A stretch of DNA of 64,000 nucleotides from Escherichia coli (GTDB lineage Bacteria; Pseudomonadota; Gammaproteobacteria; Enterobacterales; Enterobacteriaceae), in assembly GCF_003334815.1 (NCBI RefSeq), contig NZ_QOWO01000001.1; one strand, given 5' to 3'. The notes under the pieces are model-generated. The model made no database searches and was not told where the DNA came from. It saw only the letters and a program-made list of their open reading frames with translations. This document shows positions 11,655 through 12,844 of the stretch, one piece after another. The number at the start of each line of letters is the position of its first letter. Position 1 is the first letter of the stretch. The position numbers and the translations under genes were made by a program.

Positions 11655-12428
11655 ATGTCAGTACCTCTCATTCTGACCATACTGGCGGGGGCAGCCACGT
11701 TTATTGGCGCGTTTCTCGGCGTTCTCGGGCAAAAACCCTCGAACCGCTTACTGGCGTTTTCGCTAGGTTTTGCGGCGGGGATCATGTTGCTCATCTCATT
11801 AATGGAAATGCTTCCTGCCGCACTAGCAGCTGAAGGAATGTCGCCTGTGTTGGGTTATGGAATGTTTATCTTCGGTCTGCTTGGCTATTTTGGCCTGGAC
11901 CGCATGTTGCCACATGCTCATCCGCAGGATTTAATGCAAAAATCGGTGCAGCCGTTGCCAAAATCGATCAAGCGCACAGCCATTCTGCTCACTCTCGGCA
12001 TCAGTCTGCATAACTTCCCGGAAGGGATTGCCACCTTTGTCACGGCGAGCAGCAACCTGGAGCTGGGATTTGGCATCGCACTGGCCGTCGCGTTGCACAA
12101 TATCCCTGAAGGTCTGGCAGTGGCAGGCCCGGTTTATGCGGCAACGGGGTCTAAACGCACCGCGATTCTGTGGGCGGGGATTTCTGGACTAGCAGAAATT
12201 CTTGGTGGTGTGCTGGCGTGGTTAATCCTCGGTAGCATGATTTCCCCGGTGGTCATGGCGGCAATCATGGCGGCGGTTGCAGGAATTATGGTGGCGCTCT
12301 CGGTTGATGAATTAATGCCGCTCGCCAAAGAGATTGACCCTAATAATAACCCCAGCTATGGCGTACTATGTGGAATGTCAGTGATGGGATTCAGTTTAGT
12401 GCTGCTACAAACGGCGGGAATTGGTTAA
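11655..12428 (+). CDS. zupT: Zinc transporter ZupT (ZIP family)
   Basis: ORF track starts at 11613; start chosen at [10 protein letters not shown], giving 257 aa. Confidence 0.95.
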
Positions 12429-12468
12429 AAACAACATCAGAAGTTGTCCAGCGCATGGACAACTTCTG
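12425..12468. terminator. Hairpin CAGAAGTTGTCCA-loop-TGGACAACTTCTG between convergent zupT and the small minus-strand ORF; U-tract lies on the minus-strand side
   Basis: 13-bp perfect stem; run AAAAACAACAT on plus gives U-rich tail for the minus-strand transcript. Confidence 0.7.
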
Positions 12469-12485
12469 CCAGCTTCACGAAAGCC

Positions 12486-12656
12486 TTATTCTACCTTTTC
12501 GGCTGTCTCTTCTCTCGTACTGTTTAAGTATTTGTTCCGCGCTTCAAGCAGTGCGTCTCTGTCCTGGCGAAACGCCCGACAATAACGTTTCAAATGCAGG
12601 AAATAACCCACCACAACCAGAGCAATCAATACAATCCAGTACCAGGCGATAAACAT
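12486..12656 (-). CDS. Candidate small membrane protein (56 aa from ATG; ORF track gives 64 aa from an upstream TTG)
   Basis: N-terminal hydrophobic helix (FIAWYWIVLIALVVVGYFL) then charged tail; AAGG just upstream of the ATG; hairpin terminator immediately downstream; AT-rich upstream region. Confidence 0.6.
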   Translation of the reverse strand: MFIAWYWIVLIALVVVGYFLHLKRYCRAFRQDRDALLEARNKYLNSTREETAEKVE

Positions 12657-12844
12657 CCTTTTACCCTTAATATTTAACAATACTAAACATTTAGCGTATA
12701 AATTTCACATATCCTTTTTCGGATATATTCATATGGTCGCATAATAACGGAACAATTATATGATTTTGATCATAATGAAAAAGAATGCCTGATATTAATG
12801 AAATTTTCTCATAGAAAGAGAAGCGGAATTAACATCTTGCATAG

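Follow-up and report, generated by a model that had tools for sequence, protein, structure and literature searches.

On the minus strand between zupT and ribB, in a 64,000-nucleotide stretch of an Escherichia coli chromosome (contig NZ_QOWO01000001.1; the whole stretch is referred to here as the window), lies a short open reading frame (ORF) with a 56-residue product. This ORF (12486–12656) is the catalogued gene yqiD (b4756 in EcoCyc, WP_000469266.1), which is probably activated by FNR. The order of genes and elements in the window, ygiD, zupT, yqiD, ribB, flavin mononucleotide (FMN) riboswitch and ubiK, is that of a K-12-type E. coli chromosome, and the annotation bears out an earlier note on this DNA that had placed a small membrane-protein gene between zupT and ribB. 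The features of the reading frame and its product are these:

12486–12656, minus strand: yqiD coding sequence, 56 codons followed by a TAA stop.
12664–12668, minus strand: Shine–Dalgarno sequence AAGGG, conserved, 7 nt upstream of the ATG.
YqiD residues ~2–20: predicted transmembrane helix, from hydropathy.
YqiD residues 21–42: conserved juxtamembrane segment, HxKRYCRAFRQDRDALLEAR.
YqiD residues 43–56: variable acidic and basic tail, free to vary in the alignment.

The 56-residue product, MFIAWYWIVLIALVVVGYFLHLKRYCRAFRQDRDALLEARNKYLNSTREETAEKVE, is 100% identical to that of the RefSeq MG1655 coding sequence yqiD, ‘protein YqiD’ (WP_000469266.1), so that the comparison with annotated E. coli small proteins suggested by the earlier note returns yqiD itself. 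It is also identical to the sequence (MFIAWYW...AEKVE) in Table 1 of VanOrsdel et al. (2018, PMC6001520), where yqiD is placed at 3183381–3183551 between zupT and ribB with a length of 56 residues; sequence, length, strand and flanking genes are all the same as in K-12, and nothing differs. In a megablast search of 5,426 complete E. coli genomes the region was present in all, annotated as ‘yqiD: protein YqiD’.

Translation of the ORF in E. coli K-12 has been shown by published immunoblotting of a sequential peptide affinity (SPA) tagged protein and by ribosome profiling: YqiD is among 36 small proteins seen with a chromosomal SPA tag, and yqiD is one of the 13 of these that had also come up as unidentified positives when a screen by ribosome profiling was done with tetracycline, the kind of evidence that the earlier note had proposed to consult (VanOrsdel et al. 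2018, Proteomics 18:1700064, PMC6001520). That study reported the synthesis of YqiD only and assigned no function, regulation or localisation (PMC6001520), and no assignment of function to the E. coli protein was found in the literature searched. Most literature matches to ‘yqiD’ concern an unrelated ispA homologue of B. subtilis, and one, on our reading, appears to be a slip for YqjD. In a 2025 preprint, the 230-bp region upstream of yqiD was placed in a green fluorescent protein (GFP) reporter assay in shaken M9 medium and natural non-coding variants were compared; yqiD was one of four genes for which the effect of the variant was consistent across methods. As a gene, yqiD is therefore already known, having been catalogued since 2018, and the novel part of this analysis is only the FNR promoter argued for below.

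The minus-strand frame extends over 12486–12680, giving 64 codons from an upstream TTG, and contains the ATG at 12656 from which 56 codons are read, as the earlier note had described. Owing to the varying distance between the two codons (24 nt in K-12, 25 nt in many species), the frame from the TTG is not conserved, so the TTG was rejected and the ATG taken as the start. The note had also pointed to an AAGG just upstream of the ATG. This sequence is present (12657–12660), abutting the ATG with zero spacing, but the Citrobacter freundii group has AAGA there; the working Shine–Dalgarno sequence, judged by its conservation, is AAGGG, which most loci of Escherichia, Citrobacter, Salmonella and Intestinirhabdus keep as TAAGGGT and a few replace by variants such as GAAGGT. 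Over the start codon, K-12 carries GUAAAAGGAUGU (12651–12662, minus strand), which matches 11 of 12 positions of the CsrA consensus obtained by systematic evolution of ligands by exponential enrichment, RUACARGGAUGU. Its GGA is replaced by GAA in the C. freundii group, so any control by CsrA would be lineage-specific.

The length of the ORF by itself is not beyond chance, since ATG-initiated ORFs reaching 56 codons or more occur in 16% of shuffles of the 489-nt intergenic region, and one of 65 codons lies on the opposite strand of this spacer; conservation and published experiments are what make yqiD a gene. A scan with one genome per species yielded 30 loci encoding a YqiD relative, from Escherichia species, many Citrobacter, Salmonella enterica subspecies, Intestinirhabdus, ‘Enterobacter sp.’, Phytobacter and Kosakonia. 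Each of the 30 keeps an unbroken frame of 56–70 codons, and the disrupted frames that the earlier note had said would speak against a gene were not found. Variable sites in codons 1–42 number 20, 16 and 37 at the first, second and third codon positions, a third-position bias, and pairwise dN/dS (the ratio of nonsynonymous to synonymous divergence) against K-12 is 0.03–0.13, with dS of 1.3 to more than 2 between genera. The three antisense frames are all interrupted by stops in other species, and the plus-strand ORFs of 65 and 94 codons antisense to yqiD were rejected on this ground. These alignments show strong purifying selection on yqiD across Escherichia, Citrobacter, Salmonella and their relatives. 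A chance ORF within a non-coding transcript or regulatory spacer, which the shuffled spacers and the ORF on the opposite strand would allow, is already refuted by these data and by the published immunoblot of the protein, and we give it next to no credence.

YqiD is predicted to be a single-pass inner-membrane protein formed by one long helix. Residues 2–20 have a mean Kyte–Doolittle hydropathy of 2.43 (19-mer), and the 34-residue tail contains 9 lysines and arginines and 7 aspartates and glutamates, with 5 lysines or arginines within the 15 residues after the hydrophobic stretch; the strongly hydrophobic helix and charged tail noticed earlier are thus both present. From the positive-inside rule, the N-terminus is predicted to be periplasmic and the KRYCRAFRQDRDALLEAR segment and variable tail cytoplasmic. 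AlphaFold2, run with the YqiD alignment, predicts a single continuous helix over residues 2–55 (mean predicted local distance difference test score of 74). Invariant in the alignment of 17 homologues are M1, I3, W5, Y6, W7, Y18, H21, K23, R24, A28, R30, D32, R33, D34, A35 and L36, with C26 nearly so, and most of the conservation lies within residues 1–42.

The family is small: a profile search of 1.84 billion representatives recovered only 26 YqiD-related proteins. Because its distant members keep the pattern [KR][RH]xx[KR]A[FYC]R[QH][DE]R[DE]A after a hydrophobic N-terminus, the best-conserved element is the juxtamembrane cytoplasmic helix and not the membrane span. The best match in Pfam-A is below threshold (DUF2621, E = 8e-4, 19.8 bits, covering the transmembrane-plus-charged region only), the best in NCBIfam, at 18 bits, falls short of the cut-off of 50, no Pfam-A match to the Salmonella homologue has an E-value below 0.1, and a profile search of PDB sequences returned nothing above threshold; the sub-threshold matches were set aside as compositional, reflecting the transmembrane-plus-charged region. 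Homologues in Citrobacter, Salmonella and E. coli with 67–80% identity bear the NCBI and UniRef name ‘DUF4051 domain-containing protein’, but the Pfam-A release scanned gives no DUF4051 match for the E. coli or Salmonella protein. In enteroaggregative E. coli (EAEC) 042, orf3334, a hypothetical gene of the ‘DUF4051 family’, is upregulated in a mutant of aar, which encodes ANR, an H-NS-interacting regulator, and is one of only 3 such genes among the 23 tested (PMC5570504); orf3334 is probably the yqiD orthologue. Two predicted metagenomic proteins (P0103 and P0123) are chimeric, one joining an extended UbiK N-terminus and the other ZupT residues ~1–70 to a YqiD or YqiD-like C-terminus. As the parent genes are on opposite strands, the chimeras probably arose through faulty assembly or inversion on short contigs.

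The limits of the transcription unit are set by two hairpins:

12438–12468, minus strand: yqiD intrinsic terminator hairpin, a 13-bp perfect stem with 6 GC pairs and a 5-nt loop.
12427–12437, minus strand: U-rich tail of this terminator, AUGUUGUUUUU, with 8 U in 11 nt, overlapping the zupT stop codon (12426–12428, plus strand).
12856–12887, minus strand: ribB terminator, a 13-pair stem (−16 kcal/mol) with a U tract, forming the upstream boundary.

The yqiD hairpin starts 17 nt past the stop codon and has a minimum free energy of −24.6 kcal/mol (z = −4.2 against shuffles). It is followed on the minus strand by AUGUUGUUUUUAA and on the plus strand, after the same stem, by CCAGCUUCACG, which contains no U tract. 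As the U tract is on the minus strand only, the terminator serves yqiD and not zupT, in agreement with the perfect-stem, minus-strand terminator described in the earlier note. A strong hairpin lies between the yqiD and zupT stop codons in 22 of 31 loci, with at least three unrelated stem sequences, and in the remaining 9 just 9–22 nt separate the two stops.

Division by the ribB terminator supports ribB and yqiD being separate transcription units. Independent transcription is also indicated by the ~18% of E. coli genomes in which a fimbrial operon, not ribB, lies upstream of yqiD, and by a sigma-70 peak ~70 nt upstream of the yqiD ATG in chromatin immunoprecipitation followed by sequencing (ChIP-seq; Myers et al. 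2013, PMC3688515). The view of yqiD as a real, independently transcribed small membrane-protein gene is thereby upheld, its location in the membrane being a prediction. Across 12300–14000, Rfam at permissive E-values returned only the ribB FMN riboswitch (13675–13823) and sub-threshold noise, with no match in the yqiD leader. One sub-threshold match, to the Salmonella small RNA (sRNA) STnc240 (12849–12919, minus strand; 29 bits against a gathering threshold of 55, E = 0.08), extends over the 3′ end of ribB and its terminator and may be a fragment derived from the 3′ untranslated region, or noise.

Upstream of the reading frame are the elements on which the proposed regulation of yqiD depends:

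12730–12735, minus strand: candidate −10 element, CATATG in K-12 and TATAGT, TATATG or TATATA elsewhere, 31.5 nt downstream of the palindrome centre.
12766–12779, plus strand: FNR site TTGATCATAATGAA predicted by Myers et al. (2013; U00096.2 3181683), matching the FNR consensus at 9 of 10 specified bases and overlapping the palindrome by 8 nt.
12760–12773, strand not applicable: FNR-like palindrome ATGATC(A/G)AAATCAT, here ATGATCAAAATCAT, matching the FNR consensus at 4 of 5 positions per half-site and 8 of 10 overall.
12657–12775, minus strand: conserved leader and promoter block of ~120–135 nt, from an alignment of 16 loci.

The leader is conserved in Escherichia, Citrobacter, Salmonella and Intestinirhabdus, beginning abruptly at the palindrome and ending at the ATG, and the sequences further upstream are unrelated from one lineage to another. 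Since synonymous sites of the ORF are saturated between genera, this conservation implies constraint. All 27 loci of the clade formed by these genera share the invariant palindrome, its centre 108–111 nt from the ATG. Class II FNR-activated promoters carry the FNR consensus, TTGAT-N4-ATCAA, centred near −41.5. The yqiD box resembles them in being near-consensus, invariant, occupied by FNR in vivo as judged by chromatin immunoprecipitation (ChIP) and associated with a gain of sigma-70 under anaerobic conditions, and differs in that both outer bases are A in place of T and in that, with CATATG taken as the −10 element, box and −10 would be ~2 bp further apart than in the canonical arrangement. 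Transcription is predicted to start at ~12720–12726, ~65–70 nt upstream of the ATG, which would put the palindrome centre at −41.5 to −43.5, a position compatible with a class II FNR promoter. At or just past the predicted start is an inverted repeat, ATATCC-GAAAAA-GGATAT (12709–12726, minus strand). Some Citrobacter and Intestinirhabdus have ATACCT-N6-AGGTAT in its place, a change that looks compensatory. As a co-varying 5′ hairpin (ATATCC-N6-GGATAT, with TACCT...AGGTA in some Citrobacter), the repeat was rejected because it is absent from the C. freundii group.

Occupancy data for this site have been published. Myers et al. (2013, PMC3688515) list an FNR peak at U00096.2 3181647, described as “5' of / end of zupT/ribB” with target ‘Unknown’ and called by MOSAiCS, NCIS and CisGenome from ChIP-seq and by CMARRT from ChIP with microarray detection (ChIP-chip). 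They also list sigma-70 ChIP-seq peaks at 3181639 and 3181649, the signal at the latter being higher under anaerobic (1002) than under aerobic conditions (395; adjusted p 6.7e-83). With the TTGATCATAATGAA motif and the coordinates of yqiD as anchors for conversion to the window, the summits of both FNR and sigma-70 lie at ~12722–12732, ~70–75 nt upstream of the yqiD ATG. The peak was left without an assigned target because yqiD was not annotated in 2013. Further FNR peaks in the same study lie at the small membrane-protein genes ynhF and yncL (PMC3688515), and the supplementary tables of ArcA ChIP experiments list no peak at the yqiD locus.

We consider it probable that yqiD is a monocistronic gene for a 56-residue membrane-helix protein, with an FNR-activated promoter, a hairpin terminator and a larger membrane protein as partner of its product. 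FNR would bind the invariant palindrome ATGATCAAAATCAT ~41–44 bp upstream of the transcription start and activate a sigma-70 promoter, and oxygen limitation would be the main condition for YqiD synthesis. Translation would begin at the ATG, served by the AAGGG, and transcription would end at the 13-bp hairpin and U tract abutting the zupT stop codon. The protein would insert into the inner membrane through residues ~2–20, with its N-terminus out and its C-terminus in. In the most speculative step, the juxtamembrane helix would probably bind and modulate a larger inner-membrane protein or complex. CydX, CydH/YnhF, MgtS, AcrZ and MgrB are E. coli inner-membrane proteins, small and single-pass, whose binding partners are larger membrane proteins; YqiD is like them in size, in its single predicted transmembrane helix, in being encoded by a stand-alone gene and in its predicted condition-responsive expression, but shares no sequence similarity with them and has an unusually long (~34-residue) conserved charged cytoplasmic helix. 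More tentatively, with chances that we put slightly below even, YqiD may be an FNR-activated protein induced by oxygen limitation, the missing target of the orphan FNR peak, whose RAFRQDRDALLEAR helix, possibly with His21 and Cys26, tunes an anaerobic membrane function such as metal uptake by ZupT or a respiratory complex. On this account yqiD is the target proposed for one unexplained E. coli FNR binding site, and the anaerobic induction predicted from the conserved FNR-type box and ChIP peaks supplies a condition under which a phenotype or partner of this well-conserved gene could be sought.

Activation by FNR is probable on the strength of the conserved palindrome together with the FNR peak and the anaerobically enhanced sigma-70 peak. 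Several observations weigh against it. The box has two mismatches, and matches of this quality occur in the window at chance frequency (34 found, 30 expected); the bare motif scan is not significant, so the argument depends on conservation and ChIP data. The box is absent from the distant homologous loci (Phytobacter, Kosakonia and others), the K-12 −10 candidate CATATG is weak, and with it the palindrome centre lies nearer −43.5. The position-weight matrix of Myers et al. chose the overlapping, non-conserved site (PMC3688515); the conserved palindrome is favoured here because TTGATCATAATGAA is limited to the K-12-type Escherichia allele. SPA-tagged YqiD was detected in aerated lysogeny broth cultures, so expression is not strictly anaerobic (PMC6001520). 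This aerobic synthesis fits the main rival, a sigma-70 promoter that is constitutive or otherwise regulated, with TATGAT within the palindrome as −10 and TTAATA as −35, and with an FNR peak that is silent, repressive or incidental. TTAATA-18-TATGAT (12798–12769) is the only promoter-like site found in a consensus scan, the reporter assay on the 230-bp upstream region was run in shaken M9, and Myers et al. placed the peak among those without an expression change attributable to FNR (PMC3688515). However, expression of a gene not annotated in 2013 could not have been scored in that study, the TTAATA is conserved only in the K-12-type allele, conservation runs 110 nt downstream of TATGAT, and the sigma-70 and FNR summits also lie downstream of it; sigma-70 occupancy is 2.5-fold higher under anaerobic conditions, contrary to what repression would give. 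We regard this rival as unlikely, at perhaps one chance in a handful.

The function of YqiD could instead be tied to its neighbour, as an accessory subunit or regulator of the metal permease ZupT. The two genes are convergent in all 30 species loci and in those of the distant homologues P0112 and P0118, the arrangement is kept where a fimbrial operon displaces ribB, the transcripts end within a few nucleotides of each other or overlap, and, at the membrane boundary, the close family has an invariant His21 and a nearly invariant Cys26. Common descent alone would nevertheless produce such synteny between close relatives, the genes are convergent and not co-transcribed, the distant members lose His21 and some of them also Cys26, a further distant homologue (P0113) has no zupT nearby, and zupT is reported to be constitutive whereas yqiD appears to be oxygen-responsive; a dedicated role at ZupT is accordingly improbable. 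Still less credible is a type I toxin-like hydrophobic peptide held in check by antisense transcription such as zupT read-through. Its small size, single hydrophobic helix, conserved untranslated leader and own terminator are features that such a peptide would have, and the lack of a U tract on the zupT side of the hairpin would permit antisense read-through. Tagged YqiD, however, accumulates in normally growing cells, the gene is single-copy, vertically inherited and syntenic, and the charged cytoplasmic segment, not the hydrophobic helix, is the most strongly conserved part; no toxin family in Pfam or NCBIfam matches the protein, and no Rfam sRNA family, antisense or otherwise, matches either strand of 12300–12850. 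FNR activation of a gene for a membrane protein with a larger partner is the reading that we retain.

At every locus yqiD is convergent with zupT, with ygiD beyond, and ribB lies upstream in many loci, though not all. The distant homologues P0112 and P0118 occupy the same setting, ribB, the homologue, zupT and ygiD, and the P0118 gene overlaps its convergent neighbour by 18 nt. P0113 is located between assT-dsbL-dsbI and ygiC.

Within E. coli, yqiD exists as two deeply divergent haplotypes, the second carried by 993 of the 5,425 matching genomes (regions compared: window 12100–12860 and, for loci L002/L004, NZ_CP027534.1 1581000–1594000). The second allele, annotated as ‘hypothetical protein’ WP_001296421.1, has ~83% identity over the leader and first ~36 codons, an unrelated C-terminal tail and a different terminator hairpin. 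Its dS from the K-12 allele is ~2, as large as between genera, and the adjacent ZupT protein is identical (WP_001295627.1), the divergence ramping up from the 3′ half of zupT. In genomes with this haplotype a four-gene fimbrial operon separates yqiD from ribB, rather than ubiK from glgS. One protein (P0013) is recombinant, with the N-terminus of one allele and the tail of the other.

Insertions of IS1 were found in yqiD of natural isolates. In strain S30, and probably also in H1 and H3, the element is at the extreme 5′ end or in the leader (L041, NZ_CP010231.1 652–1406), and strain AVS0968 has it within the divergent allele, past ~codon 37 (L003, NZ_CP124392.1 1654–2385). The gene is therefore dispensable in those strains.

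A second palindrome is located in the ygiD–zupT spacer (11585–11612), where TGATGA-N3-TCATCA lies within GATAAC...CAGTTATTTTGA, ~50–60 nt upstream of the zupT ATG. No FNR peak is listed at this position by Myers et al. (2013, PMC3688515). The element is nearly invariant from Escherichia to Phytobacter, and has ATGAT...ATCAT half-sites in common with the yqiD palindrome.

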